The notes below the pieces were generated by a model. That model made no database searches and was not told the DNA's origin. It saw nothing but the letters and a program-made list of their open reading frames with translations. This document shows, in pieces, positions 608 through 44,078 of a DNA stretch of 62,065 bases. Position 1 is the stretch's first letter, and each line of letters starts with the position of its first letter. Source of the DNA: Burkholderiales bacterium. GTDB lineage: Bacteria; Pseudomonadota; Gammaproteobacteria; Burkholderiales; SG8-41. The DNA is taken from positions 1 to 62,065 of the forward strand of contig JBKBXX010000004.1 in the NCBI GenBank assembly GCA_046313915.1, written 5' to 3'. A program made the translations under genes and the position numbers.

Positions 608-621
608 TTGATATAAATCAA
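608..621. promoter_or_regulatory. FNR/CRP-family (FNR-type) box
   Basis: TTGAT-ATAA-ATCAA, exact FNR consensus, intergenic upstream of the cytochrome c gene. Confidence 0.8.
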
Positions 622-676
622 CTTTTCTGGATTTGGCCGGGAATGCCGCACAAAGACGACGCGCAACAGCGCCGCG

Positions 677-1564
677 TCACCTTTGCAAGGTGGTGATGGC
701 TGCAGCGATTTGGGCGCTCAGGTCTATCGCATTGGAGGGATGCGGGACGGTGTTGCAGGTCACAACGCACGCTGCCCCCGCGGCGAGCAGATCTTCATAA
801 GCCCGCCCCGCAAAAATGGCGTGCACGCCGATGCATACGGGCGGCGCCAGCCCGGCGCGTTTCAGGTGTGCCATGGTTTCGATCATGGTCCGGCCGGTGG
901 AAATGATGTCGTCGATCAGCACCGGAGTGTGGGTATGGTATTGAACGGTTTCCGGAAGCGATACTTCGACGTCGCGGTCGCCGCGCCGGATTTTTTCGAG
1001 GACGGTGCAAGGCGCGGTGGTGGCGTCCGCGACTTCGCGGACCCGCTGCATGCTTTCCGCGTCGGGGCCGATCAACCACGGCGAAGAAACATTCTCGATG
1101 ATCCATCGCGCTATGCATGGGGCAGCGCGCACTGCCGTGGTGGGAATCGCATAAAGCTCGCCGAGCGAGCCGTAGCGATGCAGATGCGGGTCCACTGTCA
1201 CCAGCCAGTCGGCGTGGCTGCCGACGAGGCGCGCAAAGCTCTCCGAAGTGATGGCCTCGCCCGGCTGGAAGCGCCGGTCCTGCCGCATGTAGGGGAGATA
1301 GGGAACGACAAGGCCGACGCAAGTCGCGCCGAGTTCCCGGGCGGTAGTGACTGCAAAACAGACCTGCAGGAATTTCGTGTCGGGGTCTCGCATATTACAT
1401 ACGAGAACGACAGTATGGCCGGCAACCGGCGTATCGAGCCGCACGTAGCTTTCGCCGTCCGGGAAACGGCGCACGGTGAGTTGGCCGAGTTCGCCGCCCA
1501 GTCTTGCTGCCAGGGCGGCGCAGAGTTTGTCCTGGCCGTGCAGCGCAAAGAAAACGGGCCTCAG
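677..1564 (-). CDS. ribose-phosphate pyrophosphokinase-like protein
   Basis: RRFPDGESYVR, PYLPYMRQD, VDPHLHR, LIDDIISTGRT PRPP motif; probable CTG start overlapping the upstream TGA. Confidence 0.85.
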   Translation of the reverse strand: MRPVFFALHGQDKLCAALAARLGGELGQLTVRRFPDGESYVRLDTPVAGHTVVLVCNMRDPDTKFLQVCFAVTTARELGATCVGLVVPYLPYMRQDRRFQPGEAITSESFARLVGSHADWLVTVDPHLHRYGSLGELYAIPTTAVRAAPCIARWIIENVSSPWLIGPDAESMQRVREVADATTAPCTVLEKIRRGDRDVEVSLPETVQYHTHTPVLIDDIISTGRTMIETMAHLKRAGLAPPVCIGVHAIFAGRAYEDLLAAGAACVVTCNTVPHPSNAIDLSAQIAAAITTLQR

Positions 1565-3090
1565 GACTCGTCTCCCAGTACGATGATGTCTTTCTGAGAG
1601 GCGAGGTATTCCCTGGCGTAGGCGAGTTCGCCGGGGGCTTCGGCGTGGATGGTGAAAAGCGGTTGACCGGTTTCGATGTTGTTGCCGAGCGGCGTGAAAA
1701 AATCGAGCCCCGCCGCAGGCGCAGTGGGCGCGCCGGCAAGCTTGGCAATGCGTGCGAGCCGCCGGTTGTCGATGGCGGTCACGCGCCCCGCGCGCGGTGC
1801 GGTCACGGTATGGGTATGCCGCGAGCGGGGCGGCTCGCGCATGCCGCCCTGCGCTTCGCAGATGGCCTGGAATTTTCGCCACGCGCGTCCGTCGCTCAGG
1901 ATGGCATGCGCCAGATCGTAACCGGTGCCGGTCGGGACGTTCGCAGCGAGCTCGATGATCTCGCCGGCGAGCACGAGCGAACGCTCGCGCAGATCCTGCG
2001 GTGCGCCGGGGTCACCGCGCAGCACCGCGAGCGCGTCGCGCGCTTCGAGCGCCGGGCCGATGCCGCGCCCCACCGGCTGCGAGCCGTCGGTGAGCGCCAC
2101 ACACACGTTCATGCCGAAAGCGCGACCGACCGCGATCAACTCCTCGGAGAGCTGGCGCGCTGCTTCCCGCGAGCGTACTTTGGCGGTGGGGCCGACCGGG
2201 ATGTCGATCACCACGTGCGAGGAGCCGGCGGATATTTTTTTCGAGAGTACCGAGGCGACCATCTGGCCGGCGCTGTCCATTTCCAGCGGACGTTCGACGC
2301 GGATCAGGATGTCGTCGGCCGGGCTCAGTCTGACCGCGCCGCCCCAGACGATGCATCCGCCTGTCTGCTCGACGACCTTGCGGATGGTACGGATATCGAG
2401 ATTGACGGGCGCCAGCATTTCCATGGTGTCGGCGGTGCCTGCCGGCGAGGTGATGGCGCGCGACGACGTTTTGGGGATGGTCAGGCCGTATGCCGCGACA
2501 ATGGGTACCACCAGCAGCGTGGTGCGGTTGCCCGGCAGCCCGCCGATGCAGTGTTTGTCGACGACCGGCGCTACCGGCCAGCTCATGCGCTCGCCGACCT
2601 CGACCATGGCGCGCGTGAGGGCGATGGTTTCTCCGGTGTCGAGATGATTTCCGGCGCACGCGGTGACGAAAGCCGACAGATGCAGCTCCGAATACCGTCC
2701 CGCCACGATGTCGCGCACGATGGCCGACATCTGCTGGTCCCCGAGGCGCTGGCCGAAGACCTTGGCGCGCACGTGGCTCAGGGATTCCAGCGGTTCCGGG
2801 TGCGAGAATTCGGCGTGATCGCCTTCATGTGCCTGCAACAGGCGCCACGCCGCGTCGGACAGACCGGCTTCATCGGGGGAGAGCAGCCGCTCGTCGGTGA
2901 CGACATTGAGCGTGCCGATGATGGTGTTGCCGCGCGAGGTGACGAGCACGCGCGACTGCGCTTCGAAACCCTCGGAGCGGCAGATATGGCAGTCGGCGCG
3001 CATGTAGATCACGGGCTCCTGGTGCGTGTCTATCCCCATGCGTCGCAGGCGTAGCGCATGGAGATTGAAAACGGCGGGTACGGACGGCAT
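1561..3090 (-). CDS. thymidine phosphorylase family protein (AMP phosphorylase-like)
   Basis: DKHCIGGLPGNRTT, KTSSRAITSPAGTADTME motifs plus N-terminal extra domain typical of the AMP-phosphorylase-like subfamily. Confidence 0.9.
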   Translation of the reverse strand: MPSVPAVFNLHALRLRRMGIDTHQEPVIYMRADCHICRSEGFEAQSRVLVTSRGNTIIGTLNVVTDERLLSPDEAGLSDAAWRLLQAHEGDHAEFSHPEPLESLSHVRAKVFGQRLGDQQMSAIVRDIVAGRYSELHLSAFVTACAGNHLDTGETIALTRAMVEVGERMSWPVAPVVDKHCIGGLPGNRTTLLVVPIVAAYGLTIPKTSSRAITSPAGTADTMEMLAPVNLDIRTIRKVVEQTGGCIVWGGAVRLSPADDILIRVERPLEMDSAGQMVASVLSKKISAGSSHVVIDIPVGPTAKVRSREAARQLSEELIAVGRAFGMNVCVALTDGSQPVGRGIGPALEARDALAVLRGDPGAPQDLRERSLVLAGEIIELAANVPTGTGYDLAHAILSDGRAWRKFQAICEAQGGMREPPRSRHTHTVTAPRAGRVTAIDNRRLARIAKLAGAPTAPAAGLDFFTPLGNNIETGQPLFTIHAEAPGELAYAREYLASQKDIIVLGDES

Positions 3091-3230
3091 GAGAGCCCCG
3101 GTGGTTGGGTTCGATGCGATTATGCCATTCCCGCCGGACCGGCACATGGCCGGGCGCCGCATGGCAGCGTGCAATGGTTTTCTCGGGCGCCACCGCGGCC
3201 GGTATTACGGCTTTCCCGCCACGCAGGACA

Positions 3231-3476
3231 TCAGGTTTCGAGGTCGCGTTTTTTCTGCTCGTATTCTTCCTTGCCGATTTCACCTCGGGCATAGCGTTCC
3301 TTGAGGATTTCGAGAGCGCGGTCTGTGGTTTCGCGCCCGCTGCGCAAAGAACCTCCGATCAGCAGTCTGAATAGCACGACGATGCCCAGGATCAGCAGTA
3401 CCCACCACAGAACCATGTGCAATCCGCTGAGTATTCCCCAGCCGCCACCCCAGCCCATTCCCATATCACCCCACAT
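3231..3476 (-). CDS. SHOCT domain membrane protein
   Basis: Met/Gly-rich N-terminus, TM helix, ALEILKERYARGEIGKEEYEQKK. Confidence 0.85.
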   Translation of the reverse strand: MWGDMGMGWGGGWGILSGLHMVLWWVLLILGIVVLFRLLIGGSLRSGRETTDRALEILKERYARGEIGKEEYEQKKRDLET

Positions 3477-8351: not shown

Positions 8352-10868
8352 TTACAGCTTCACTCGCCGCAGCCGCAGCGCGTTGGTAACCACTGATACC
8401 GAACTCATCGCCATCGCCGCGGCGGCGAAAATCGGCGACAGCAGCAGGCCGAAAACGGGATACAGCACGCCAGCCGCCACCGGAACGCCTAAGGCATTGT
8501 AAACAAAGGCGAAAAACAGATTCTGCTTGACGTTGCGCATGGTCGCGTGCGACAACCGGATCGCCTTCGCGATGCCGCGCAGGTCGCCTTTCACGAGTGT
8601 CACGCCGGCGCTTTCGATGGCCACGTCGGTGCCGGTGCCCATGGCGATGCCGACGTTGGCCTGGGCGAGCGCCGGTGCGTCATTGATGCCGTCGCCCGCC
8701 ATCGCCACGATGCGTTTCTCGCCTTGCAGCTTCTTGATGACCTCGACTTTCTGGTCCGGCATCACTTCTGCGATGACTTCTTCGATGCCGAGTTGTTTGC
8801 CGACGGCTTCCGCAGTCTTGCGCGAATCGCCCGAGAGCATGACGACACGCACGCCCTCGGCGGTGAGCATCTTGATCGCCTCCAGCGTTGTTTCCTTGAT
8901 CGGATCGGCAACCGCGATCACTGCTGCGACACGCCCATCGATTGCGGCGTACAGCGCAGTCTTGCCCTGTGTGCGCAGGGCTTCAGCCTTGTCGGCAAGC
9001 GCCTGCGGCACCGTGCCATGCGCTTCCATGAAGCGGCGGTTGCCCACGGCGACTTTGCGCCCGCTTATCGTTCCGTGCACCCCCTGGCCGGTAACGGACT
9101 CGAAGTGTTCCACCTGTCCCAGTTGCAGGCTGCGTTCTTCGGCGGCCTTGACGATGGCCTCGGCAAGGGGATGCTCGCTGGCGCGCTCGAGACCGGCGAT
9201 CAGCGCGAGCGCCTCGTTCTCGGCAATTCCGCTTTCGACGACCAGGTCCACGAGCTGCGGCCTGCCGAGCGTGAGCGTCCCGGTCTTGTCCACGACCAGC
9301 GTATTCACCTCACGCAGCTTCTCGACGGCTTCCGCGTTGCGGAACAGGATGCCGTTCTTCGCGCCCTGGCCCATGGCCACGGTAATCGAGATCGGTGTCG
9401 CGAGCCCGACGGCGCACGGGCAGGCGATGATGAGCACGGCCACTGCGTTGACCAGGGCGTAGGTGATCCGCGGCTCGGGGCCGAAAAACCACCACACGAG
9501 CGCGGTGATGATGGCAATGACTATCACCGTCTGCACAAAATAGGCGGCGACGAGATCGGCCAGCCGCTGCACGGGGGCGCGCGTACGCTGCGCCTGCGCC
9601 ACCATATGCACGATCTGCGAAAGCAGTGTGTCGGCACCGACTTTTTCGGCGCGGATCACCAGCGCGCCTTTGCCGTTGATGGTCGCGCCGATGACCTTGT
9701 CGCCTGCTCTTTTGGGGACGGGAACGGGCTCGCCGGTGACCATGGATTCATCGACGTTCGAAGAACCTTCCAGGCACGTGCCGTCGACCGGCACTTTTTC
9801 GCCGGGCCGTACGCGCAGCTTGTCGCCGACCTGCACCTGGTCCAGCGGCACTTCCGCTTCGCTGCCGTCGGCCTCGATGCGCAGCGCGGTGTTCGGTGCG
9901 AGCGCGAGCAATTCGCGTATCGCCTGGCTGGTCTGGCCCATCGCGCGCAGCTGCAGCACTTCGCCCAGCAGCACCAGGGTGACGATGACCGCGGCGGCTT
10001 CGAAATAGGTGCCGACCCGACCTTCATGCTCGCGGAACGCCTCCGGAAACAGCCCGGGCGCAAGCATCGCAAACAGGCTGAAAATATAGGCGAGCGCGAC
10101 GCCCAGCCCGATCAGCGTATACATGTTCGGATTCAGGCTGCGAATCGAACGCGCAAACTTCCGGAAAAAAGGCCAGCCGCTCCACAGCACGACCGGCGTT
10201 CCGAGCGCTAACTCGACGTACATCCTGATGTGCGGTGCCAGGCCGAACGGTTGCGCCATGCCGAAATAGGGCCCCATCGCGATATAAACCAGTGGCGCCG
10301 AAAGTATGGCTCCCACCCAGAAGCGGCGCGTCATGTCGCGCAGTTCGGCGTCGTCTTCCTGTGCACTCGCCACCGGCACCAGCGCCATGCCGCACTTGGG
10401 GCACGAGCCCGGCGTGTTCTGCCTGATTTCCGGATGCATCGGACAGGTGTATCCGGTTGCGGCCGGCCCGGCAGGCACCAGCGGCACCAGCGCCATGCCG
10501 CATTCGGGACAGGAGCCGGGCCCCTCCTGCTCCACTTCCGGGTGCATCGGACAGGTATGGGTTCCGTGTGTTTTTTGCGCAGCAGCAGCGGCCGACGCAG
10601 TCTTTGCAAGATACTTCAGGGGGTTGGACTTGAATTCCGAAAGGCAGTGGGCACTGCAAAAATAGTACTTCGTGCCCTTGTGCTCGAGCATACCGGCTGC
10701 TGATCCGGAATCGACGTACATGCCACACACCGGGTCGGTCACTTGCGCGGCGTGCGTGCCTCCGTGATGTTCGTGCTGAGCATGGGCATGGGCATGGGCA
10801 TGGGCACGGGCATGGCCGTCATGGCGATGGCCACTGGCTTCACGAGTCTTCTCGTCAGGTGCTTTCAT
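8352..10868 (-). CDS. copA: Cu+/Ag+-translocating P1B-type ATPase with His-rich tail, YHS and two CPMHP domains
   Basis: TGE, CPC, DKTGT, HP, GDGIND, YN and MAMSS; YHS DPVCGM..YYFCS. Confidence 0.95.
10780..10815. repeat. 6-bp tandem repeat encoding His-Ala run in ATPase N-terminus
   Basis: (GCATGG)n, about six copies with one mismatch. Confidence 0.7.
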
Positions 10869-13061: not shown

Positions 13062-13090
13062 AATATATACCCCATACGGGTATATGTCAA
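13062..13090 (-). promoter_or_regulatory. sigma70 promoter with CsoR/RcnR-type operator in the spacer
   Basis: TTGACA-17nt-TATATT; palindrome ATATACCC-N5-GGGTATAT at 13065-13085. Confidence 0.85.
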
Positions 13091-16637: not shown

Positions 16638-16671
16638 GTTCCCGATTATTCCCGCATTGCGCGATTTCGTT

Positions 16672-22513: not shown

Positions 22514-22526
22514 CGCTGAGCTCCTG

Positions 22527-26734: not shown

Positions 26735-26748
26735 TTGATTTGCATCAA
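26735..26748. promoter_or_regulatory. FNR-type box (class II geometry)
   Basis: TTGAT-TTGC-ATCAA with AATAAT at 26770-26775, same spacing as the 16672 box. Confidence 0.85.
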
Positions 26749-26848
26749 ATGAAAACGGCTGGCATCATGAATAATCCGTCTCCGGGAAGAGCTGTCAGGG
26801 CAGCCATGGGGTTGCTTTCCAGGCTTTTCGCGCTATCGACCCCGATTA

Positions 26849-27229
26849 ATGGCCGTGACCAGGAATCCAGAGCGTTTTTTGCACTCGCTGTGCCGCGCGA
26901 TCATCATCGCGCTGCTGTTTACGCAGGCTGCTTTTGCGGCCCAGCCCTGTATCACGCCGGGCGTTTCCGTAGCCAGCGCGATGTCGGGGCAGATGGACGA
27001 CGATTGCAATATGCCTGCTGTAAGCGCCGGCAAACTGTGCGCGGTGAAGTGCATGGATAGCGACCAGTTGGCCGTGTTTGCTGCACCGGTCGTCCCCCCG
27101 CGGCCAACCGTTGCGGTTTTGACGCTACCGCCACCGCCGGCAGATGGCGTCGTGGTGGCGATGCGCAACCGGATCGAACCGGCACGGGATCCTCCCAAGG
27201 CCATCCGTTTCTGCAGCTTCCTGATTTGA
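26849..27229 (+). CDS. exported Cys-containing leader-type protein (C-term PPKAIRFCSFLI)
   Basis: Signal peptide, LCAVKC, Pro-rich tail; heads the cusCBA-like operon. Confidence 0.7.
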   Translation: MAVTRNPERFLHSLCRAIIIALLFTQAAFAAQPCITPGVSVASAMSGQMDDDCNMPAVSAGKLCAVKCMDSDQLAVFAAPVVPPRPTVAVLTLPPPPADGVVVAMRNRIEPARDPPKAIRFCSFLI

Positions 27230-27294
27230 TCCTCCCCTGTACGTGGTAGTGCGCCGCGATCGCGGCTGCGTGTCTTTCTTTGCGGAGGTGTGTC

Positions 27295-28647: not shown

Positions 28648-28684
28648 ACGAACCCATAATCATGCCGAAATCCTGGAGACGATC

Positions 28685-30301
28685 ATGAAGCGGATGGCCA
28701 TCTCGACCCTCGTTCTGGCGCTGACAGGCGCCGCGCTGGCGGCCGGTTACTGGTGGGGAAGCCGCACGAGCGAAAGCGCGAGACCGAGGACGGAAATCGC
28801 CGACGCCGGCAATGCGGAGACCGCAAAAAAAACCGAACGCCGGATACTTTACTATCGCAACCCCATGGGCTTGCCCGACATCTCGCCGACGCCGAAAAAG
28901 GATCCGATGGGCATGGATTACATCCCGGTCTATGAAGGCGAGGAACAGGCGGCGAGCGGCTCCGCAGTGAAAATCAGCATCGACAAGGTGCAAAAACTGG
29001 GCGTGAGGACCGAGGCCGTTGCGCTGCGCGAACTGATCCGCACCGTGCGCGCCGTGGGCATCATCCAGCCGGACGAGCGGCGCATCTACGCGGTGGCGCC
29101 GAAATTCGAGGGCTGGATCGAGCAATTGCATGTCAATGCCACCGGCCAACCGGTGACGCGCGGCCAGCCATTGATGGAGGTATACAGCCCCGAACTGGTC
29201 AGCGCGCAGCAGGAATACCTGATTGCCTGGAAAGGAGTGGAGGCGGTCAAGGACGGCAGCCCGGAAGCCCAGGCCGGCATGCGGCAGCTGGTGTCCAGCG
29301 CGCTGCAACGGTTGAAGAACTGGGACATTTCCGAAACCGAGCTGCAGCGCCTGCAGAAGGAAGGTGTTGCCCGACAGACGGTGACGTTGCGCTCGCCGGT
29401 TGGCGGCGTAGTGCTGGAGAAACCGGCGCTGAAGGGCATGCGTTTCATGCCGGGCGAGACGCTCTACAAAATTTCGGATCTATCGTCGTTATGGCTGCTC
29501 GCGGACGTTTTCGAGCAGGAACTCGCGCTGATCCGTCCCGGCCAGGCGGTGAAAATCACGGTCAATGCCTATCCCGGCAATACCTTTCCCGGCAAGGTCG
29601 CGTTCGTTTATCCGACGCTCACGCCGGAAACCCGCACCGCAAAAGTGCGCATCGAGCTTGCCAATCCGCGGGGACTGCTGAAGCCGGACATGTACGCGAA
29701 CGTCGAGCTGCTCGCCGGCAGCCCGCAGGCGAAAGCGCTGGCTGTGCCGGACTCGGCGGTGATCGACAGCGGCACGCGGCAGATCGTGCTGGTGCAGCTC
29801 GGTGCGGGCCTGTTCGAACCGCGCACGGTGAAGCTTGGCGCGCGCGCCGACGGCTACGTCGAGGTGCTGGACGGCCTGCGGGCTGGAGAAAACGTCGTGA
29901 CCAGCGCCAACTTCCTGATCGATTCGGAAAGCAATCTCAAGGCGGCATTGGGCGCGTTTGGTGCAGCGGGTGGCGAACTCGTCCGGCAGCGAGCGGCCGC
30001 GGATGCGCCGCCCGCTGCGGCACAAGTGCACAAGGGGCAGGGCAAGCTGGAAGACATCGATGCCAAGAGCGGCACTGTCACTATCGCTCATGGCCCGATT
30101 CCGAGTCTCAAATGGCCGGCGATGACCATGGAATTCCAGGTCGGGGACAAAGCGCTGCTGAAAAACGTGAAACCCGGTCAGAATGTGGCAATCGATATTG
30201 TGCAACGGGGGCCGGGCGAGTACGTGATCACGCAAATCACACCTGCCGCGGCACCGACCGCGGGCGCGCCGGCAAACGCCGCCGACCACAAGGGGCATTG
30301 A
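28685..30301 (+). CDS. cusB: RND periplasmic adaptor with fused C-terminal CusF domain
   Basis: NPM..KDPMGMDY, MFP core, HGPIPSLKWPAMTM. Confidence 0.92.
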   Translation: MKRMAISTLVLALTGAALAAGYWWGSRTSESARPRTEIADAGNAETAKKTERRILYYRNPMGLPDISPTPKKDPMGMDYIPVYEGEEQAASGSAVKISIDKVQKLGVRTEAVALRELIRTVRAVGIIQPDERRIYAVAPKFEGWIEQLHVNATGQPVTRGQPLMEVYSPELVSAQQEYLIAWKGVEAVKDGSPEAQAGMRQLVSSALQRLKNWDISETELQRLQKEGVARQTVTLRSPVGGVVLEKPALKGMRFMPGETLYKISDLSSLWLLADVFEQELALIRPGQAVKITVNAYPGNTFPGKVAFVYPTLTPETRTAKVRIELANPRGLLKPDMYANVELLAGSPQAKALAVPDSAVIDSGTRQIVLVQLGAGLFEPRTVKLGARADGYVEVLDGLRAGENVVTSANFLIDSESNLKAALGAFGAAGGELVRQRAAADAPPAAAQVHKGQGKLEDIDAKSGTVTIAHGPIPSLKWPAMTMEFQVGDKALLKNVKPGQNVAIDIVQRGPGEYVITQITPAAAPTAGAPANAADHKGH

Positions 30302-30302
30302 C

Positions 30303-33300
30303 ATGCTGAGCCGCATCATCGAATGGTCGGTGCGCAACGTTTTTCTGGTACTGCTCGGCACGGTATTCGTCGCTGGCGCCGGGATTTACGCGCTGGTCAA
30401 AACACCGCTCGACGCCATTCCGGATCTTTCGGACGTGCAGGTGATCGTTTACACCGAATATCCGGGCCAGGCGCCGCAGGTGGTGGAAGACCAGGTCACC
30501 TATCCGCTGACCACCGCCATGCTGAGCGTGCCGCGCTCGAAAGTGGTGCGCGGATTTTCGTTTTTCGGCGCCTCCTTCGTCTATGTCATTTTCGAGGATG
30601 GCACCGACATCTACTGGGCGCGTTCGCGCGTGCTCGAATATCTGAATTTCGCGGCCGGCCGCCTGCCGCGCGGCGTCACGCCATCGCTGGGGCCGGACGC
30701 CACCGGCGTGGGCTGGGTTTATCAGTACGTGGTGCTCGGTGCCAATCGCACGCTGGCGGAGTTGCGCACCCTGCAGGACTGGTTCGTCCGCTATCAACTC
30801 ACCAAGGCGCAGGGGGTTGCCGAAGTGGCGAGTGTCGGCGGTTTTGTCCAGCAGTACCAGGTCATCGTCAATCCGCGCAAGCTCCAGGCTTACGGCATTC
30901 CGCTGGCGAAAATCACGCAGGTGATCCGCATGAGCAATACCGATGTCGGCGGGCGTGTGGTGGAAATGGCGGAAACGGAGTTCATGGTGCGCGGGCGCGG
31001 CTATCTGCGCGGTGTTGCTGATCTCGAGCAACTGGTGGTGAAAGCCGAAGGCGGCGTGCCGGTATTGCTGAGGGATGTCGCGCGCGTGGAACTCGGCCCC
31101 GACGAGCGGCGCGGCATCACCGAATTGAACGGCGACGGCGAGGCCGTTGCCGGCATCGCGATGGCGAGATACAGCCAGAACGCGCTTGAAGTCATCAATA
31201 ACGTAAAAACCAAAATCGCGGAGATCGCGGCCGGATTGCCGCAGGGCGTTACCCTCGAAGCGGTTTATGACCGCTCCGAGCTGATCTATCGCGCCATCAG
31301 GAACCTGCAGACTACGCTGATCGAGGAAAGCCTGATCGTGGCGCTGGTGTGCATCGTGTTTCTGCTGCACGTCAGAAGTGCCCTGGTCGCGATCATCATG
31401 CTGCCGATCGGCGTTCTGATTGCCTTCATCGCGATGCGCGCTCTCGGTCTCAATTCCAACATCATGAGCCTGGGCGGGATCGCCATCGCCATCGGTGCGA
31501 TGGTCGACGCCGCGATTGTGATGATCGAAAACACTCACAAGCACCTGGAACGTCTGCAACCGGGCGCATCGCGCCTGGAGGCAATCATCGTGGCGTGCCG
31601 CGAAGTCGGCCCTGCGCTGTTTTTCAGCCTACTCATCATCACCATCTCGTTTCTGCCGGTGTTCACGCTGGAGGCGCAGGAAGGGCGGTTGTTCGCTCCA
31701 CTTGCCTTCACCAAGACCTTTGCCATGGCGGGAGCGGCTTTGCTTTCGATCACGCTGGTCCCGGTGCTGATGCTGCTGTTCGTGCGCGGGCGGATCATGC
31801 CGGAGGCGAAAAATCCCATAAACCGCTTTCTCATCTGGATCTACCGGCCGGTCATCGCACTGGTGATGCGCTGGAAAAAGCTCACCATTGCCATTGCTGT
31901 CGCCGTCATGGCGTTGTCGGTATCACCGGCGCTGAAACTGGGCACGGAGTTCATGCCGACCCTCAACGAAGGCACACTGCTCTACATGCCGACGGGGCTG
32001 CCGGGGATGTCGGTCACCAAGGCGGCCGAGCTGATGCAGACCCAGAACCGCATCATCAAAAGTTTTCCCGAGGTGGCGTCGGTGTTCGGCAAAGCCGGAC
32101 GCGCCGGGAGCGCGACCGATCCGGCACCCATTGAAATGTTTGAAACGGTGATCAATCTCAAGCCGGAAAACGAATGGCGCCCGGGCATGACGATCGACAA
32201 ACTGATTGCCGAATTGGATCGGGCGGTGCAGCTGCCGGGCGTGAGCAACGCCTGGACCATGCCGATCAAGGCGCGCATCGACATGCTGTCCACGGGGATC
32301 CGCACTCCTATCGGCATCAAGGTGTTCGGCAAGGACCTCGCCGGGATGGAGCGCCTGGCAAAACAGATCGAGGCGGTGGTGAAAACCGTTCCCGGCACCA
32401 CCAGCGCCTATGCCGAGCGCATCACCGGCGGCTATTTTCTCGATATCGAGCCCGACCGCGTGGCGCTCGCGCGTTATGGACTGGCGGTGGGCGATCTGCA
32501 GGAGGTGATCGGCACTGCGCTCGGCGGCGATCTGGTGACCACCACCGTCGAGGGCCGGGAGCGCTTCGGTGTCATCGTGCGCTATCCGCGCGAGCTGCGT
32601 AACGATCCGCAGGCGATTGCCACCCAAGTGCTGGTGCCGGCGATGGGCGGCGCGATGATACCGCTGGGCCAGGTTGCCAAAGTGACGGTCACGCGCGGGG
32701 CGCCGAGCATACGGACCGAGAACGCGCTGCTTTCCGCCTACATTTTCGTCGACATGCGCGGCCGCGACATCGGCGGCTACGTCGCCGACGCGCAGAAGGC
32801 GGTGCGCGAGCAGGTGGAGTTCCAGCCCGGCTACTACATTACTTGGAGCGGCCAGTTCGAGTATCTGGAGCGTGCCAAGGAGCGCATGAAAGTAGTGGTG
32901 CCGGTGACCGTGCTGCTGATCTTCATACTGCTGTATCTCAATTTCAGACGTCTCACCGAAACGCTGATTGTGATGCTGTCGGTGCCGTTTTCTCTGGTGG
33001 GAGGGGTCTGGCTGATGTACCTGCTCGATTACAACATCAGCGTGGCGGTCGTGGTGGGATTCATCGCGCTCGCCGGTGTGGCGGCCGAAACCGGGGTGGT
33101 GATGCTGCTTTATCTTGACCATGCATTCAGGACGGCGGTGGCCAGGCAGCACGCAGCGGGCCGACCTGTCACTGCGTCTGATCTGTACGATGCGGTCATG
33201 CAGGGCGCGGTGGAACGGGTGCGGCCGAAAATGATGACGGTGGTGGCGATCATGGCTGGCCTGTTGCCGATCATGTGGGGCAGCGGCACCGGCTCCGAGG

Positions 33301-33425
33301 TGATGCGCCGCATTGCCGCGCCCATGGTCGGGGGAATGATTTCCTCGACCGCCCTCACCCTGATCGTGATTCCCGCGATCTACGCGCTGGTGAAGGAATT
33401 TACGCTCAGCCGCAACGGCGTGTAA
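30303..33425 (+). CDS. cusA: CusA/SilA heavy metal RND permease
   Basis: LDAIPDLSDVQV, GAMVDAAIVMIEN, RVRPKMMT. Confidence 0.95.
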   Translation: MLSRIIEWSVRNVFLVLLGTVFVAGAGIYALVKTPLDAIPDLSDVQVIVYTEYPGQAPQVVEDQVTYPLTTAMLSVPRSKVVRGFSFFGASFVYVIFEDGTDIYWARSRVLEYLNFAAGRLPRGVTPSLGPDATGVGWVYQYVVLGANRTLAELRTLQDWFVRYQLTKAQGVAEVASVGGFVQQYQVIVNPRKLQAYGIPLAKITQVIRMSNTDVGGRVVEMAETEFMVRGRGYLRGVADLEQLVVKAEGGVPVLLRDVARVELGPDERRGITELNGDGEAVAGIAMARYSQNALEVINNVKTKIAEIAAGLPQGVTLEAVYDRSELIYRAIRNLQTTLIEESLIVALVCIVFLLHVRSALVAIIMLPIGVLIAFIAMRALGLNSNIMSLGGIAIAIGAMVDAAIVMIENTHKHLERLQPGASRLEAIIVACREVGPALFFSLLIITISFLPVFTLEAQEGRLFAPLAFTKTFAMAGAALLSITLVPVLMLLFVRGRIMPEAKNPINRFLIWIYRPVIALVMRWKKLTIAIAVAVMALSVSPALKLGTEFMPTLNEGTLLYMPTGLPGMSVTKAAELMQTQNRIIKSFPEVASVFGKAGRAGSATDPAPIEMFETVINLKPENEWRPGMTIDKLIAELDRAVQLPGVSNAWTMPIKARIDMLSTGIRTPIGIKVFGKDLAGMERLAKQIEAVVKTVPGTTSAYAERITGGYFLDIEPDRVALARYGLAVGDLQEVIGTALGGDLVTTTVEGRERFGVIVRYPRELRNDPQAIATQVLVPAMGGAMIPLGQVAKVTVTRGAPSIRTENALLSAYIFVDMRGRDIGGYVADAQKAVREQVEFQPGYYITWSGQFEYLERAKERMKVVVPVTVLLIFILLYLNFRRLTETLIVMLSVPFSLVGGVWLMYLLDYNISVAVVVGFIALAGVAAETGVVMLLYLDHAFRTAVARQHAAGRPVTASDLYDAVMQGAVERVRPKMMTVVAIMAGLLPIMWGSGTGSEVMRRIAAPMVGGMISSTALTLIVIPAIYALVKEFTLSRNGV

Positions 33426-33475
33426 AAGGGACTGTAACCGCAGGCGGCGAATCGAATGCAACCGAGGAGGATGTC

Positions 33476-33814
33476 ATGGATATTAAAATCATCATCGCCA
33501 TTATCCGGACCGACAGGCTGGAGAAGGTGGAAAAGGAGCTGCAACGAATCGGCGTCGAATGTATCAGCGTCTCAAAAGTGAAGGGATACGGCGAGTATCA
33601 GGATTTTTTCGAACGTGACTGGATGGTCGAGGAAGTCAGGCTTGAAATACTCACCAGGCGGGAGGAGGTGGATGCCATCACGGCGGCGATCATGGCGGCT
33701 GCGCATACCGGTTTGCCCGGCGATGGCGTCGTCGCGGTGGTTCCGGTCGAAAAACTGTTTCTGATCCGCACGCGATCCGAGGTCACTGCTGACGACTGCT
33801 GGTTGCCGAAATGA
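33476..33814 (+). CDS. PII-like protein with shortened T-loop
   Basis: AIIR..L, VKGYG, AAHTGLPGDG; SD GAGGAGG. Confidence 0.85.
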   Translation: MDIKIIIAIIRTDRLEKVEKELQRIGVECISVSKVKGYGEYQDFFERDWMVEEVRLEILTRREEVDAITAAIMAAAHTGLPGDGVVAVVPVEKLFLIRTRSEVTADDCWLPK

Positions 33815-33833: not shown

Positions 33834-34454
33834 TCACGATGCGGCCGGCTCGGCGCGTCCGCAATAGACGTAACTCATCGGTCGTGGTCCCTTCGCATAC
33901 CCCGTTTCGAGTTCCGTGATCCGGAAGCCTGCAGCCTGAATCAGTTGATCCATTTTCCGGTTGAGGTTGCATCCTCCGGCTATCCTGCCCCACAGCGGGT
34001 TGAGCCGTTGCTGCCAGCGTTGAACTCGGACTTCGGGGGCGAGGCCGTGCTCGGCGAACAGCAGTATCCCGCCGGGCTTGAGCACCCGCTTCATTTCCTT
34101 CAAGGCCTTCAGCGGGTCGGGGATAGAACACAGGGTCCAGGTCATGACCACGGTGTCGACGCAGCCGTCATCCAGCGGAATTTTTTCACTCGAGTGCGCC
34201 AGAAATTCGACAGGCAACGTAATGCCACGGGTTTTTTTTCTGGCCATCACCAGCAGCTCCTTCGACGGATCGAGTCCATAGAGGTGATCGACACCGCTAC
34301 CGTAAAAAGGCAGGTTGAGCCCCGAGCCGACGCCGATCTCAAGGACCGTGCCGCGCGCCCGGGGTACGATTTGCGCGCGGTAACGCGTCGCCTCCTTGTT
34401 CCGCATGGCGATGTCTATGAAACGCGGTAGTACCCATTTGTCGTAGAAGCTCAT
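33834..34454 (-). CDS. class I SAM-dependent methyltransferase
   Basis: VLEIGVGSGLN, WTLCSI, EHG, GGCNLNR. Confidence 0.9.
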   Translation of the reverse strand: MSFYDKWVLPRFIDIAMRNKEATRYRAQIVPRARGTVLEIGVGSGLNLPFYGSGVDHLYGLDPSKELLVMARKKTRGITLPVEFLAHSSEKIPLDDGCVDTVVMTWTLCSIPDPLKALKEMKRVLKPGGILLFAEHGLAPEVRVQRWQQRLNPLWGRIAGGCNLNRKMDQLIQAAGFRITELETGYAKGPRPMSYVYCGRAEPAAS

Positions 34455-34674
34455 ATCATGGTGGTGACGAATCAAATGAGTGGGTGCAAGAAAACACCAT
34501 GTTCCGACGACTGTCGCCCGGTTTTCGCCGGGACCGGCGGAGGTTCACGCGTTGCGCACAAAGAGAAGAACGCACTTGGGCCGGATTTCGAAAAGTATGC
34601 ATATGCGCTCGTCGACGAACAGCACGGCAGGCGCGGGCGAATCGACGATGACAGGCTCATGGCGATGTGGCGAA

Positions 34675-35415
34675 CTATCCGATGCTTCCCAACACCGGGA
34701 AAGTCCGCAACAGCCACCAGGAAAAAGCCGTAAGCTGGCCGGTAATCATGGCAAACCCCATGAGCACCATCACAATGCCCGCCACGATCTGGAGCCAACG
34801 GCCGATGTGCCCGAAGTTCCGGAGCCGTTTTGCAAATGCGCCGGTAAAGACTGCGCAAGCGAGAAACGGGATTCCGAGTCCGACAGAGTATATGCCCAGC
34901 AGGATAATGCCACCGGAGACCGAGACGGCTACTGCGCTTACCGTGAGTATCGCTCCCAGCACCGGTCCGATGCACGGTGTCCAACCGAATCCGAACGCGA
35001 GACCCAACACGTACGCGGCCAGCGGCTGTCCGCTGCCGACTCGGGGATGGAGACGGAAATCGTATTGCAACCACGGGATTTTCAGGAACCCCGCCGTGAA
35101 AAGGCCGAACATGATGACGATGGCACCACCTGCAATATTGGTCTCGTAGCGGTAGCGCAAAAGCAGTTGCCCGAGTGCAGTGGCGCTTGCGCCGAGCGCG
35201 ATGAATATCGTCGAGAAACCCAGCACGAAGCACAGACTCAGCACGAGCGCCGAAAGCCTGCTGGTGATGTGTTCCTCATGGCCCGGACGTGTCAGCGAGT
35301 GGCCGGCGACGTAGGAAACATAGGCGGGCACCAGCGGCAGCACGCAAGGCGAGAGAAAGGAGATCACTCCCGCTGCGAAGGCGGTCAATAAGCCGAGACT
35401 GGAGATATCACTCAT
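34675..35415 (-). CDS. ccdA: cytochrome c biogenesis / thiol-disulfide transporter CcdA
   Basis: SFLSPCVLP and GWTPCIGP. Confidence 0.92.
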   Translation of the reverse strand: MSDISSLGLLTAFAAGVISFLSPCVLPLVPAYVSYVAGHSLTRPGHEEHITSRLSALVLSLCFVLGFSTIFIALGASATALGQLLLRYRYETNIAGGAIVIMFGLFTAGFLKIPWLQYDFRLHPRVGSGQPLAAYVLGLAFGFGWTPCIGPVLGAILTVSAVAVSVSGGIILLGIYSVGLGIPFLACAVFTGAFAKRLRNFGHIGRWLQIVAGIVMVLMGFAMITGQLTAFSWWLLRTFPVLGSIG

Positions 35416-35503
35416 CGCAATGCGCCCTGCCCATTTTCCATTCTCATGCCGGAGTGCAGTCCGGCAAGCCCGAGGTGCGTGGGTTGCGGTGATATGTTCT
35501 TTT

Positions 35504-35962
35504 TCAGCAACATTTCTTCATGTCTTCTTTTAGCTTTTCGATGACGGTGCTGTTTTTTCCAGATTGGCGGCGCGGCACGAAAAATGCCGTCGCCAGAATC
35601 AGCAGCGCGACGATGGCGAGCGTCAGCAGCTTCCAGTGCGGGACGGCGAGGCCGTAGGCAGCTACGAAGCCGGTCGGCAGGAACAGCGTTTTCCATAGCA
35701 GCGGCGAACGGCCGCCGGGCAGACGCTTTTCAAGCTGATCGCCGGTTCCAACCACCGATGCGCCCAAAAGTATCGCGAGCATCGAGACATCAAAATCAAA
35801 GCCTGCAAAGCGCCCCGCCAGCATCCACAGCCACGTTCCGGAAATGCCGACGCAGATGGGACAAATGGAGAAGGGCAGAATCTTTGCCGCCAGCCATGCC
35901 AGCCCCGTAATGGCGAATATCGATACGATCGTGACGAGTGAGGTGGTCATGAAGTTTGCCAT
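35504..35962 (-). CDS. membrane protein with CPIC motif and C-terminal KKCC
   Basis: Several TMs, ICPICVG, terminal CC; start uncertain. Confidence 0.7.
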   Translation of the reverse strand: MANFMTTSLVTIVSIFAITGLAWLAAKILPFSICPICVGISGTWLWMLAGRFAGFDFDVSMLAILLGASVVGTGDQLEKRLPGGRSPLLWKTLFLPTGFVAAYGLAVPHWKLLTLAIVALLILATAFFVPRRQSGKNSTVIEKLKEDMKKCC

Positions 35963-35972
35963 GGCAAACACG

Positions 35973-36893
35973 TCAATCGTTTTTCAGCGGGGTGCCGCAC
36001 TTTGCACAGAAGCGGTCGTCCGGGGCCCGCCGGGTGCCGCATTGGGGGCAGAGGCGGGAATTTTTCCGTTGAACGCCGGCTGCGGCTCCGCGCTGTCGCC
36101 ACCACAGAAAAGCCGCCCCGCTTCCGGTGAGCAGTGCCACGGCGCCGGCCAGAATCATGGCCCACCAGCCGGCTGGTTTGCCGCTGGAGCGACCGGGAGT
36201 CTGGGGCTGAAGTATCTCCGAGGAAGTTCGCGAATCCGTTTTCGTGTAGTGGATCCTGATCGGCAGCTGTTTCCCCGCCGCCAGGGCACCCAATTCTGCC
36301 GACAGGTAGCGCAGCCCGTCTTCGCCGATTGCGGTGGCGTCGAGGTTCGGCTGCGCCGAGAGACCGAGCGCTCCTGCGGGCTCTTGAACCACTACGCTCA
36401 GCCGGTCTGCCGCCAAGTCGCCCGGCCAGACATAGGTGTAGCTGCGTTGTGGCGCGGCTGTGGCGAGCGGTTCGTAGAATTCGACGTGGAACAGGCGTTG
36501 TGGGATCTCGAAGCTTACCGTGATGAAATCGTCGGCATTCTTGCGCTCGTAATTTACGTTGAAGAGCCTGGCCCCCGGCCCAGCTGCCGAGGCCACTGCC
36601 GTCGGGCCGCCGGATGAAGCCGGGGTGCGAAGCGATATGGCGGCTGGCAACGCGATGTCTGCCGCCAGCTCGCCCTTGAGGATCACCAGCGCTGCCGGGC
36701 GGTCGAATTCCGGCCAGATTTCGATTTGCAGACTTGCAAGCCGCGGATTTGCCTTGAGCGCACCGCGATCCGGCGGATCAGCGGCAAGGGCGGGCAGCAG
36801 AAAGACAGCCAGGACGATCGTCAGGACTCGCGATGCAACAAGGGCTTGGGCGCCGCTATCCCCGGTTTCCTGTTGTTTTGTCAGGTTTTCCAT
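35973..36893 (-). CDS. membrane-anchored protein with C-terminal zinc ribbon
   Basis: Periplasmic domain (IWPEFD), TM, CPQC..FCAKCG. Confidence 0.8.
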   Translation of the reverse strand: MENLTKQQETGDSGAQALVASRVLTIVLAVFLLPALAADPPDRGALKANPRLASLQIEIWPEFDRPAALVILKGELAADIALPAAISLRTPASSGGPTAVASAAGPGARLFNVNYERKNADDFITVSFEIPQRLFHVEFYEPLATAAPQRSYTYVWPGDLAADRLSVVVQEPAGALGLSAQPNLDATAIGEDGLRYLSAELGALAAGKQLPIRIHYTKTDSRTSSEILQPQTPGRSSGKPAGWWAMILAGAVALLTGSGAAFLWWRQRGAAAGVQRKNSRLCPQCGTRRAPDDRFCAKCGTPLKND

Positions 36894-36937
36894 GCAGGTT
36901 TCCTTCGCCCCGGAACGCGATGCTGTGCAGGCCGGCT

Positions 36938-37513
36938 TCATTTATGCAGCTCATTTATCAGCGGAACGATTTTTTCTTGCACGATTTGTGGTGTCAATGG
37001 CCCGATTTGCTTGTAGGCGATGCGGCCGTCACGGCCAATGACGAAAGTTTCCGGCACGCCATAGACACCCCAGTCGATCGCCACCCGGCCGTTGATGTCG
37101 GCGCCGGTGCGCGTATACGGGTCTCCCAGATCGTCGAGCCATTTCTCGGCATCCTCCGGTTTGTCCTTGTAATTGAGCCCATGGATGGGGACAACGCCTT
37201 TTTCCTTGAGTTCCATCAGCAGCGGGTGCTCGGCGCGGCAGGCTACGCACCACGAGGCGAATACGTTGACCAGCGACACCTCACCCTTGAGGTCGGTGCT
37301 GGCGAGCCCTGATGTGCGGCCCTTGACCGGCGGCAAGCTGAATTCCGGCACCGGTTTGCCGATCAACGGTGACGGGATTTCCCTCGGGTTCAGTGTCAGT
37401 CCGATGCCGAACAACACCACCATGCCGAGGAACAGCAGCAAGGGCACGAATCCTCCCCAGCGTCCGACTCTTCGCGGCAAACCGGTGTTGCTCACGTCGA
37501 CGTTGTCACTCAT
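36938..37513 (-). CDS. dsbE: DsbE/CcmG thiol:disulfide interchange protein
   Basis: NVFASWCVACRAEH, GVYGVPETF. Confidence 0.92.
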   Translation of the reverse strand: MSDNVDVSNTGLPRRVGRWGGFVPLLLFLGMVVLFGIGLTLNPREIPSPLIGKPVPEFSLPPVKGRTSGLASTDLKGEVSLVNVFASWCVACRAEHPLLMELKEKGVVPIHGLNYKDKPEDAEKWLDDLGDPYTRTGADINGRVAIDWGVYGVPETFVIGRDGRIAYKQIGPLTPQIVQEKIVPLINELHK

Positions 37514-37530
37514 TGTGCATGGCTCCTATA

Positions 37531-38313
37531 TCACAGAGTGAGGAAAACGAGACCAAGCAGAATCATGGCGATACCGCCGCCGAAGCGCATCGTTCTTGAC
37601 TGCCGGTTCCTCCATTCCTGCACTTTTTCCACGAGCGCCGGGTCACCTGAAATGCGAAGAATGATCATCAGCGGCAGGATGAAGATCAGGTTGTAGATCA
37701 CGAGATAGCCCAGGCCGGCTGCGTACGTCGCCTGGTCGTGCAGCAATCCCACCACCATCAGATATGGTCCGCCGGTGCATGGAAATTCACAGACGCCCAC
37801 CAGTCCGCCCAGAAGAAACGCTGACGGCAGCGATCCTTTTTCCATCAATGTCGCTATCTGGTGATGTGCGGCCTGCGGGATTTTCAGCCTGATGGGGAAC
37901 GTCGGAAAGAGCTCGCCGATGACGTTGATCAGGCCGAGCGCAATCAAAAGCGTTGCGCCGACCTTCGCCATGAAATGCGGGGTGTCGAAAATGTGGAGCG
38001 CCTGCAGAATGCCGAGGCCGATCAGCATGTAGGCGAGAAAGATGCCGAGGATGTAGGCGCTGCCGATTTCCAGGACGCTCGACCGCAGTTTGCCGAGGCT
38101 GAAGAGGAATGCGATCGTGAGTATCAGGATGGAAAAGGCGCAGGGATTGATGCTGTCTATGAGGGCTGCGACGACGATGAGCGGCAGCAGCCACTTGCCT
38201 TCGTTCGACAGCTGCCAGAGTGCCGCTGTGCCGACATTTCCGGACTGGAAAAGCAGTACGGAGCCGGCAAGCAGCACGCCGAACCCGATTAAAGTCGCAA
38301 GTGTTTTATTCAT
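37531..38313 (-). CDS. CcdA/DsbD-like membrane protein (second type)
   Basis: DSINPCAF and EFPCTGGPY. Confidence 0.85.
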   Translation of the reverse strand: MNKTLATLIGFGVLLAGSVLLFQSGNVGTAALWQLSNEGKWLLPLIVVAALIDSINPCAFSILILTIAFLFSLGKLRSSVLEIGSAYILGIFLAYMLIGLGILQALHIFDTPHFMAKVGATLLIALGLINVIGELFPTFPIRLKIPQAAHHQIATLMEKGSLPSAFLLGGLVGVCEFPCTGGPYLMVVGLLHDQATYAAGLGYLVIYNLIFILPLMIILRISGDPALVEKVQEWRNRQSRTMRFGGGIAMILLGLVFLTL

Positions 38314-38323
38314 GTCGGCCGAC

Positions 38324-38866
38324 TTATGGCGTTACCATGGCGACGAAGCCGAGTTCGAGTGGCCTGCCTGCATTGGTCTGGATCGTGATGGCGCGTTCGA
38401 TGCGGCCGACGCCGGCGGGGCCGTGGGCTGCCGGATCGAACACGATTTCCACCTGCGCCCGGCCTTCCGGCAACAAAGTCTCGGCGATGCCCGGAATGGC
38501 TGCGTGCCCGGGCATGCCGAACGGCCCTTTCTTTCCCGCCAACGTTATCAACGTGGCGGTCGTGCACATGCAGGAAGTGTAGAGCTTGGTGATGGTTATC
38601 GCGGTCCGGCCGGTGTTTTCGATTGTGAACCTGTGAGAGACTTTTCCTGTGGCCATCGAGATCCTGCCGAAATCGAAAAACGGCTCGGGCGAGGTGAGTG
38701 CGCTGCCTGCAGCGGCTTCCCGCGCCGGACCCGGCACCGGTTTTGTCGCCTGATCCTGGCTGATGAAGACCGCGAGCGCGATCGCAATTGCCGTGGCAGT
38801 GACCAAGGCGTAGAAAATTTTCCTGTGGGACGTAATCCGCAATGCTTCCATTTTTTTCTCTTTCAT
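38324..38866 (-). CDS. DUF1573 domain protein
   Basis: FDFGRI..F.IEN.G..TSCMCT..FDPAAHGP; start 38866 or 38851. Confidence 0.85.
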   Translation of the reverse strand: MKEKKMEALRITSHRKIFYALVTATAIAIALAVFISQDQATKPVPGPAREAAAGSALTSPEPFFDFGRISMATGKVSHRFTIENTGRTAITITKLYTSCMCTTATLITLAGKKGPFGMPGHAAIPGIAETLLPEGRAQVEIVFDPAAHGPAGVGRIERAITIQTNAGRPLELGFVAMVTP

Positions 38867-39085
38867 GGCCAATTGAAAAATGGCGAGCGGTTCCTCACGT
38901 TGTCTTTCCTCGGCGGCGGCCCTCTGAGGTCGGCGAGGCGGCCGCAAGCCATGAGATTCGCAGGCCCGATGCCATGTCCTCGTCGGGGCGGCATCGCAAC
39001 GCAAACGCGAGCTCCCCGCATCAGGATGTTGTGCCAGAACGCGGCCGTAATGGCCGTCGCACAACGCTGGCGCAAGGAGGGAAGG

Positions 39086-39484
39086 CTAATTTCGCAGGCG
39101 GGAGTAAAGGATGTGTTGTGGCGGGAAGGCGGCGCGGGCGGGCGGGAACCCCGCCGCGGCAATGACGCGCTCGGCAAAAACCAGCTGAGCGGGACGTGCC
39201 GCGAGCGGCGACAACCCGGCTGCAGCGAGCGCTGCGAGATGGGGCACGGCCGGCGTTGCCTGTGGCGAGAAATAGTGCTCCTGGCAGCAGTCTGGTCCGG
39301 CCGCCATGCTGCCCACCGCGGCTGACTCGCAGCACGATGGTTCGGGCATGATGGCGGCGTCACGCGGGCCGGCGGTGCCCAGAATGCAGGCATGAGCGAC
39401 CGTTGCGGTCAGATATAGCAGCAATATCAGGCTGGTAACGCCGGCCACGACACGCCTTGTCAAGCGGGTCAGTTCCATGTCCAT
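39086..39484 (-). CDS. exported Cys-containing leader-type protein (C-term PPQHILYSRLRN)
   Basis: Signal peptide ending AHA-C, two CC pairs, Pro-rich tail. Confidence 0.65.
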   Translation of the reverse strand: MDMELTRLTRRVVAGVTSLILLLYLTATVAHACILGTAGPRDAAIMPEPSCCESAAVGSMAAGPDCCQEHYFSPQATPAVPHLAALAAAGLSPLAARPAQLVFAERVIAAAGFPPARAAFPPQHILYSRLRN

Positions 39485-39538
39485 GTGGCGAATATTAAGC
39501 GCGCAAATACGCTGACGCAAACGCTTCGGACAGCTAGT

Positions 39539-39552
39539 TTGACTTAAATCAA
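39539..39552. promoter_or_regulatory. FNR-type box (class I geometry)
   Basis: TTGAC-TTAA-ATCAA centred 61.5 nt from ATG 39484; TAATAT(T) just upstream of the ATG. Confidence 0.75.
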
Positions 39553-44077: not shown

Positions 44078-44078
44078 G

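Follow-up and report, generated by a model that had tools for sequence, protein, structure and literature searches.

Putative FNR-type promoters and CutF-like leader peptides as a proposed oxygen and copper gate on Cu(I) efflux in a Burkholderiales bacterium

A stretch of 62,065 nucleotides (the window; contig JBKBXX010000004.1 of assembly GCA_046313915.1) from a Burkholderiales bacterium of the lineage SG8-41 carries a copper cluster in which Cu(I) efflux may be gated by low oxygen and copper together, through an FNR-type box in the promoter and a copper-sensing leader peptide behind it. A probability of roughly 55% is assigned to this reading. It joins parts seen in the DNA (boxes, spacing, conservation, leader open reading frames (ORFs) and a host FNR) to a predicted hairpin before cusC and to the inferred steps of FNR binding and activation, copper binding by the leader, ribosome stalling, hairpin melting and the AND gate itself. 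The host genome comprises 3.28 Mb (93.6% complete), and the window is its contig C4. Genes were called within the analysis (about 90% coding, about 10% of the genome intergenic). Scans against Pfam (81 chosen window ORFs) and NCBIfam (53) identified the cluster genes copA, Spy-like, DUF302, cusF, copI, multicopper oxidase, OEP, czcE, cusRS, cusCBA, P-II, ccdA and dsbE.

The original prediction held that four FNR-type boxes wire this island to the oxygen or redox status of the cell. The motifs are present as described, TTGATATAAATCAA at 608, TTGATTTGGATCAA at 16672, TTGATTTGCATCAA at 26735 and TTGACTTAAATCAA at 39539, all of them intergenic. FNR activates transcription from boxes centred near -41.5 (class II) or -61.5 (class I). 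The spacing shared by boxes 16672 and 26735 and the class I fit of box 39539 were borne out (Table 1); start sites were read from predicted -10 hexamers, so that the class assignments are themselves predictions. Box 608 has no -10 at canonical spacing by eye. A position weight matrix (PWM), trained on 50 intergenic host sites outside C4, scores the four boxes at 22.5-25.1 bits. Against the genome background, five sites of at least 15 bits occur in 39 kb where 0.79 are expected (Poisson P about 0.001; about 0.009 for four sites). Matches with at most one mismatch number seven in the window, compared with a shuffle mean of 1.10, and none of 100 shuffles reaches seven. The four boxes are very likely functional activator sites of the FNR family.

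A suitable regulator is encoded in the host. Six CRP/FNR proteins pass the Pfam cut-off; one of them (C14:36745-37494) carries the sensor cysteines and an ETISR helix, matches solved FNR with an E-value of 7e-67 and adjoins hemN and ccoN, both box-bearing. TTGAY-N4-RTCAA sites are intergenic in 55 of 62 cases, although only about a tenth of the genome is, and lie ahead of genes identified by eye as ccoN, hemN, fnr, universal stress proteins and nirS. Of 1249 host genes whose upstream gap measures 100 nt or more, 69 (5.5%, training sites included) have a box. Positions 4400-37800 of contig C14 hold 13 boxes clustered around fnr, hemN, ccoN, narI-like, universal stress and U32 peptidase genes (names by eye). 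FNR occurs in 10/10 genomes tested, box-bearing and boxless alike. The idea that a box merely marks possession of FNR was rejected, as the five genomes without a cusC box all have FNR.

Comparison with related loci sets the pump apart from the oxidase. The cusC box is called conserved at 15 bits or more, a score reached in 17/25 family loci; of the eight others, two offer hardly any upstream DNA. None of 29 oxidase loci, checked down to 12 bits, reaches that value (the best 29 of 70 matching genomes; one without upstream DNA). The contrast between a boxed cusCBA operon and a boxless oxidase operon, drawn earlier for the window only, is thus conserved. The box before the Spy-like gene recurs in 12 of 14 close loci, one of which could not be analysed, and 14 of 24 overall. 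For DUF1573 it is found in three of 12 loci, exactly those with a uC leader upstream (see below); the other nine lie behind other cluster genes. Relative loci anchored on DUF3147 were mostly uninformative because their gene order is shuffled. When eight promoters are aligned, nothing is invariant except the ten half-site bases and an additional A. In 24 of 29 leader promoters the best -10-like hexamer is separated from the box by 20-23 or 40-42 nt (1000 shuffles gave a mean of 3.9 and at most 11), and in a larger set of cusC leaders the gap has these lengths in 38/43. At greater distance, one of eight class-level cusA loci has boxes upstream of cusC (17 and 15 bits); of six named plasmid loci, a perfect box ahead of a leader was seen in Azospirillum sp. 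TSA2s only, where it stands 77 nt upstream of a CopL-type leader followed by cusCBA. Modules are also shuffled: a uA-like leader with a box heads cusCBA in the relative locus L012 (12422-13158), and another in L011 (19270-19668) is boxless.

A fifth perfect palindrome, at 22855, was overlooked in the original prediction and is probably a chance occurrence. Its score of 16.3 bits equals that of the lowest training site. A role as FNR repressor site of the oxidase operon was considered and rejected: it scores lowest, overlaps the Shine-Dalgarno sequence (SD) that serves the gene at 22527-22841 and is absent in 29 relatives. A local RNA hairpin is predicted there.

Four small leader ORFs, the likely copper input, went unnoticed in the original prediction. 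Boxes 16672, 26735 and 39539 each directly precede a small unannotated leader ORF of the SilD/CusD (CutF-like) type, named uA, uB and uC. All three begin with a hydrophobic stretch, contain cysteines and end in PP-x-x-I/L-x-F/Y-x-S-x-x-x. The fourth, a CopL-type leader, heads the oxidase operon; its matches to DUF2946 (E 0.046; 14.9 bits against a cut-off of 23.7) and CopL_fam (E 0.077) both fall under cut-off. CutF-like proteins have been delimited as shorter than 150 aa, with an N-terminal signal peptide, PP within the last 15 residues and a same-strand gene within 1000 nt, and the resulting network labels include SilD, CusD and CopL (available part of PMC9973294). All four window leaders pass this filter, their signal peptides judged from hydrophobicity and not by SignalP; the gaps to the next gene are 138 (uA), 65 (uB), 234 (uC) and 103 nt (CopL-type). 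Paired with the SilD of C. metallidurans pMOL30, uB shows 26% identity (pairwise E 6e-5). uB, uC and the oxidase leader have homologues with the reading frame intact, and third codon positions differ most in 9/9 pairs. Conservation peaks in the last 12 residues, where PP keeps a fixed distance of 11-12 codons from the stop. Two cysteine columns are at least 90% conserved; uB has CAVKC (CutF itself CxxxC), and uA and uC have other spacings.

Three of the four leader ORFs (16637, 23301, 39484) start exactly 7 nt past a predicted -10, as do several relatives, which suggests leaderless mRNAs. A genome-wide leader rule returned the four window leaders and one RAPP-type leader on C58, with a box only at the three SilD-type leaders (3/3, against the 5.5% promoter base rate). 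The RAPP-type (CruR-like) leader, at about 11770-12146 of C58, lies before a gene resembling a PCuAC copper chaperone by eye and has no FNR box.

The post-stop CCUCC of uB is predicted to pair with the cusC GGAGG (P = 0.91, compared with 0.29 in shuffled sequences; single-sequence folding). Behind uA, the SD of the Spy-like gene pairs with the post-stop segment at P = 0.66 (0.08 shuffled). The support for an SD-shielding stem-loop covers these two leaders, not uC or the window's CopL-type leader. The pairing is predicted in 21 of 22 regions homologous to uB-cusC. Pairing probabilities above 0.5 were obtained for 28/40 SilD-type leaders (mean 0.68 vs 0.21 shuffled) and 19/38 CopL-type leaders. 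The spacer after uC (38852-39085) resembles a uB-type hairpin cassette of 65-72 nt whose downstream start has apparently been lost; the relative L201 retains GGAGG-ATG in this spacer, and in the window the true next gene is 234 nt on.

The pump itself is of the Cu(I)/Ag(I) type. CusA has methionine at all three positions of the E. coli site (M573/M623/M672; alignment to PDB 3t51/3k07) and passes the TIGR00914 cut-off.

Under the favoured gate, FNR would activate the three leader promoters when oxygen is low. Copper bound by the exported nascent leader would, by analogy with CutF, stall the ribosome, melt the hairpin and free the next ribosome-binding site, and the leader would let the next gene be translated only with copper bound. 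The cusCBA pump would then be made mainly at low oxygen with copper present. The oxidase operon, with a CopL-type leader on a σ70 promoter, would respond to copper without a need for anoxia, and read-through by CusR control from czcE may also feed it. Arrest would more likely fall close to the stop codon than at the prolines as in CutF, on account of the PP position 11-12 codons upstream and of an anti-SD that begins 3-11 nt past the first base of the stop codon in SilD-type leaders. Activation by copper is favoured because an SD-masking hairpin ahead of an exporter fits activation. A broader proposal falls somewhat short of even odds: in one Burkholderiales lineage a portable cassette of FNR class I/II promoter, SilD-type arrest peptide and anti-SD hairpin may precede Cu(I) efflux and envelope-repair operons, as an oxygen-copper AND gate without a copper-sensing transcription factor and a stop-proximal subtype of the CutF-like leaders.

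Table 1. Features of the window discussed in the text, with positions on the 62,065-nt stretch.
Feature	Position	Strand	Remarks
PccH-type cytochrome c	1..471	minus	Pfam PF22297, E 4.7e-61
FNR-type box	608..621	minus	PWM 22.5; upstream of PccH-type cytochrome c gene
CopA-type Cu(I) P1B-ATPase	8352..10868	minus	TIGR01511 over cut-off; unit headed by CsoR-type promoter
σ70 promoter TTGACA-17-TATATT	13062..13090	minus	CsoR-type palindromic operator 13067-13083 in spacer
Spy/CpxP-like (LTXXQ) Met-rich periplasmic protein	15501..16112	minus	Pfam PF07813, PF13801; first gene after uA
Leader uA, 128 aa	16251..16637	minus	signal peptide, Cys/His, C-terminal PPAYILFGSFRS; SilD/CusD-type; predicted leaderless mRNA
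FNR box 16672-16685 with AATAAT -10	16645..16685	minus	21-nt gap, predicted class II geometry; PWM 25.1
Oxidase operon body	16725..22841	minus	small exported protein 22527-22841, OEP 21071-22513, multicopper oxidase 19679-21049, CopI, CusF, L,D-transpeptidase, DUF302
Fifth perfect TTGAT-N4-ATCAA	22855..22868	unassigned	PWM 16.3, unconserved; in oxidase-operon leader region
CopL-type leader, 118 aa	22945..23301	minus	C-terminal PEQPQRPPRS; heads oxidase operon; conserved in relatives; codon bias
Plain σ70-like promoter TTGCAA-18-TAGAAT	23309..23338	minus	7 nt before GTG of CopL-type leader
CusR/CopR-type palindrome TTACA-N4-TGTAA	24051..24064		between czcE (23496-23939, minus) and cusRS (24117-26194, plus)
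FNR box 26735-26748 with AATAAT -10	26735..26775	plus	21-nt gap, predicted class II geometry; PWM 22.8
Leader uB, 126 aa	26849..27229	plus	signal peptide, C53/C64/C68, C-terminal PPKAIRFCSFLI; C. metallidurans SilD homologue
Predicted hairpin	27227..27297	plus	post-stop CCUCC with cusC GGAGG ribosome-binding site
cusC-cusB(F)-cusA and P-II-like gene	27295..33814	plus	follows uB
uC unit	33834..38851	minus	DUF1573, SfLAP/CcdA-like, DsbE, Zn-ribbon membrane protein, CcdA/DsbD, methyltransferase
Leader uC, about 132 aa	39086..39484	minus	signal peptide, CC..CC, C-terminal PPQHILYSRLRN; predicted leaderless
FNR box 39539-39552 with TAATAT -10	39492..39552	minus	41-nt gap, predicted class I geometry; PWM 22.5

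In the loci collected, the box is found mostly with SilD-type leaders. A rule blind to the box, applied to the loci then gathered, gave boxes with 29/42 SilD-type and 0/41 CopL-type leaders, and missed some leaders read by eye, including CopL-type ones with a box. Extending the search to cusC homologues with 50% identity or more, through metagenome and family searches as well, gave 149 loci, 134 of them distinct; 23 were dropped for short upstream DNA. A box accompanies 43 of 53 SilD-type leaders (window included), two of 45 CopL-type leaders and five of 13 loci without a detected leader. A FastTree phylogeny of 97 CusC rows implies 13 changes for the box and seven for leader type. The box is thus conserved across many branches; its link to leader type does not reach significance once phylogeny is taken into account and is suggestive only.

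Several observations weigh against the oxygen-copper gate. About six independent pairs inform the link between leader type and box, 4.2 pointing the same way and 0.1 the opposite (median p 0.125 by sign test), and a single clade holds 34 of the 43 boxless CopL-type rows. Ten of the 53 SilD-type cusC leaders have no box nearby, three of which have one 350-660 nt further upstream. An extension to Cupriavidus, Ralstonia and Polaromonas is unsupported, SilD/CusD homologues on seven records scoring at most 9.4 bits. The silD of C. metallidurans CH34 has a one-mismatch site of 13.3 bits, at the non-canonical distances of -44.5 and -59.5 from the published start sites (available part of PMC9045368). 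As to the leaders, uA and uC have no clean CxxxC, coupling of uC to its next gene across 234 nt is less clear, and the sign of copper control differs between CutF and CruR. RNAalifold on a MAFFT alignment returned no consensus pairs; the core SD pairs are invariant, so that covariation is weak and the hairpin rests on single-sequence folds. Finally, three of the host's CRP/FNR proteins look DNR-type, a class with a similar box.

The strongest competitor, though an unlikely one, accepts FNR control of the promoters and takes the small ORFs for exported copper-binding or chaperone proteins or for translational couplers, leaving a gate on oxygen only. It would agree with the lack of any Pfam or NCBIfam family match for uA, uB and uC, with the varying cysteine spacing among homologues and with the discussion of CusD as a possible Cu-binding protein (available part of PMC10304878); a post-stop anti-SD fits plain translational coupling equally well. 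The conserved last 12 residues and the fixed PP-to-stop distance suit an arrest peptide better than a folded binder, however, and the leader model is poorly folded (Atlas; predicted template modelling score, pTM, 0.22), one nearest named feature cluster having DUF2946 in 23% of its members. In the available CH34 literature, moreover, only cusD is expressed without metal stress.

Less probable again is that NO-responsive DNR-type regulators read the boxes, instead of or besides FNR, and tie copper efflux to denitrification. DNR binds a near-identical box, with a β-proteobacterial consensus CTTGAT-N4-ATCAAG (available part of PMC1274295), and the three host DNR-type proteins coexist with a box before nirS (gene names by eye). 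Box 608 is slightly nearer to the nirS box than to that of hemN (15 vs 14 of 22), but boxes 16672 and 39539 match the hemN/fnr box better than the nirS box (16 vs 12 of 22), and FNR is universal in the genomes tested. Neither C/G flank is found in 26 of 43 conserved boxes; both occur in 0/4 window boxes, 4/43 conserved boxes and 3/50 host sites, which makes them a weak discriminator. A search of the host for nosZ gave no match, nor did control genomes, so that the result is uninformative.

It is improbable, too, that FNR acts at these boxes to sustain supply and envelope maintenance during low-oxygen respiration (maturation of cuproenzymes and cytochrome c, disulfide repair) rather than copper defence. 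Of the three boxed units, two code for a Spy-like chaperone and for DsbE/CcdA, the fourth box serves a cytochrome c, and FNR controls Cu-ATPases for cbb3 assembly elsewhere (available parts of PMC2908626 and PMC3759049). Against this stand the exporter type of CusCBA with its Met triad and its box, the most widely conserved here. That the palindromes are chance or relic without a regulatory role is hardly credible. One of the five perfect or near-perfect sites (22855) does look like chance, but enrichment over shuffles and genome, invariant half-sites in diverged promoters and bimodal spacing speak to the contrary.

The combined oxygen-copper gate remains the preferred reading. Box 608 had been counted as part of the copper island and was rejected as such: it serves a PccH-type cytochrome c gene. 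Related pccH loci keep a box in 14/24 cases, in other contexts, with prs upstream in 0/24, and the box is therefore placed in the host respiratory regulon, not in copper defence. The end of host contig C82 (15587-15703) matches PccH residues 118-156 at 100%, and C82 probably adjoins the left end of the window; it carries cytochrome c maturation genes and a DNR-type regulator. Two of the other three boxes head the Spy-like/accessory unit and the DUF1573-DsbE-CcdA thiol-redox unit rather than pumps.

The oxidase operon does stand on a plain σ70 promoter, as had been stated, and its multicopper oxidase keeps the copper motifs HWHG, YHPH, HPIHLHG and HCHKSHH. The palindrome at czcE/cusRS, described as the sole CusR box found, is the only perfect one in the window; three matches with at most one mismatch are not above the 2.23 expected by chance. 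Separate anoxic and oxic arms of copper defence had been proposed. Their basis, the contrast between cusCBA and oxidase, is conserved as described above, but scans for terminators came up empty in two places, from czcE to the oxidase leader and from DUF302 to uA/box 16672, and the arms may not be insulated. The two-arm scheme is also incomplete, since copA has a CsoR-type promoter of its own. This near-consensus promoter heads a unit of a small His/Cys peptide ORF (starting at 13009), HD-GYP, Rieske, YciW-like, copA, lgt, DUF2933 and ICMT genes, and the operator arrangement recurs in the relative L015 (at 11405). A palindrome with G/C tracts over a σ70 promoter, and the Cys-His-Cys residues of the CsoR-family gene on host contig C32, are presumably features of the CsoR type; copA is likely under CsoR. 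Control of copA by CueR was dropped: no protein of the host passes the TIGR02044 cut-off, and the window shows no CueR-like pattern. A bc1-type Rieske gene (11332-11976, TIGR01416 over cut-off) stands alone in the copA unit and lies beside copA in L015 as well.

Other features flank or interrupt the cluster. A thymidine phosphorylase-like gene and a PRK07199 ribose-phosphate diphosphokinase gene form its left edge (677-3174), with a σ70-like promoter upstream at 4343-4315. The ORFs at 3498-4231 (a second ICMT-like) and 10865-11335 (YciW-like) look degenerate or frameshifted, and 4001-4231 resembles a transposase remnant by eye. On the right, sauS (sulfoacetaldehyde dehydrogenase, over cut-off), an acyl-CoA ligase gene and tctABC occupy 41123-45839; the ligase gene flanks the cluster in several relatives too, which suggests a fixed chromosomal site. 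No tRNA genes were found in the window.

Each component has counterparts in described systems. One is CutF-cutO of Rhodobacter capsulatus, in which a small Sec-exported Cys/His leader with a C-terminal PP and a stem-loop over the next ribosome-binding site heads a copper-defence operon (available parts of PMC9973294 and bioRxiv 10.1101/2025.02.05.636593). CutF ends in PPPRL, with the prolines near the stop, and controls an oxidase, whereas the boxed leaders here carry PP 11-12 codons away and would control pump and accessory genes; the term FNR is absent from the main text of both papers. The silDCBA and cusDCBAF operons of C. metallidurans CH34 share the SilD similarity to uB, the PP..IL.CC..I end, the anti-SD/GGAGG layout and the TolC-MFP-RND gene order, but the FNR-like sites upstream of their silD and cusD are degenerate (L253, 12488-12501, 13.3 bits; L260, 1433-1446, 9.4 bits) and at non-canonical distances from published start sites. 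The sil operon is not induced by acute copper, and its regulation was described as not elucidated in the available part of PMC7563307; the silDCBA promoters are given in PMC13492112, where FNR does not occur as a whole word. AND-gate logic might be the reason why the CH34 sil operon appears unresponsive in published copper experiments.

E. coli cusCFBA encodes the CusA orthologue with the Met triad. Cus is described as important for copper tolerance at low oxygen there (available parts of PMC8910356 and PMC10304878), yet the activators tabulated in the former are CusR, HprR and PhoB, not FNR, and the latter, which makes a case for a role of Cus under anaerobic conditions, has no occurrence of FNR in its available part. 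The window cusC differs in having a leader ORF and no preceding CusR-type box. CruR (DUF2946) of Bordetella pertussis is likewise an upstream ORF, of comparable size, that responds to copper and heads a copper operon, but has RAPP three residues from the end and CxxC at a fixed spacing (about 45 residues upstream), and copper represses an importer by Rho termination (available part of PMC9426467). Neither RAPP nor a match to DUF2946/CruR (PF11162) was found for uA, uB or uC. FNR boxes also lie upstream of copper transport genes for fixI/ccoI-type Cu-ATPases (PMC2908626, PMC3759049, as available). Those ATPases serve cbb3 oxidase assembly; the window target is a transenvelope exporter behind a leader peptide. 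Copper, heavy metal and cusA are not mentioned in PMC6446978, nor are these or efflux in PMC5398030. The literature search returned no case in which FNR drives either a cus/sil pump or a CutF-like leader; subscription papers lay mostly outside it and supplements were not covered (PMC9973294 has cluster logos and lists of members that may be relevant to the leader subtype). The individual parts are all known; their combination is without a report in the literature searched.

If confirmed, the arrangement would supply a direct genetic basis for an oxic/anoxic division of labour in copper defence. Cus-type pumps have been described as mattering most without oxygen, and the comparative genomics points to a direct oxygen wiring of the pump, with the O2-dependent oxidase left unwired. 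The SilD/CusD leaders would gain a testable mechanism distinct from that of CutF, and cus/sil operons may look silent in aerobic screens.

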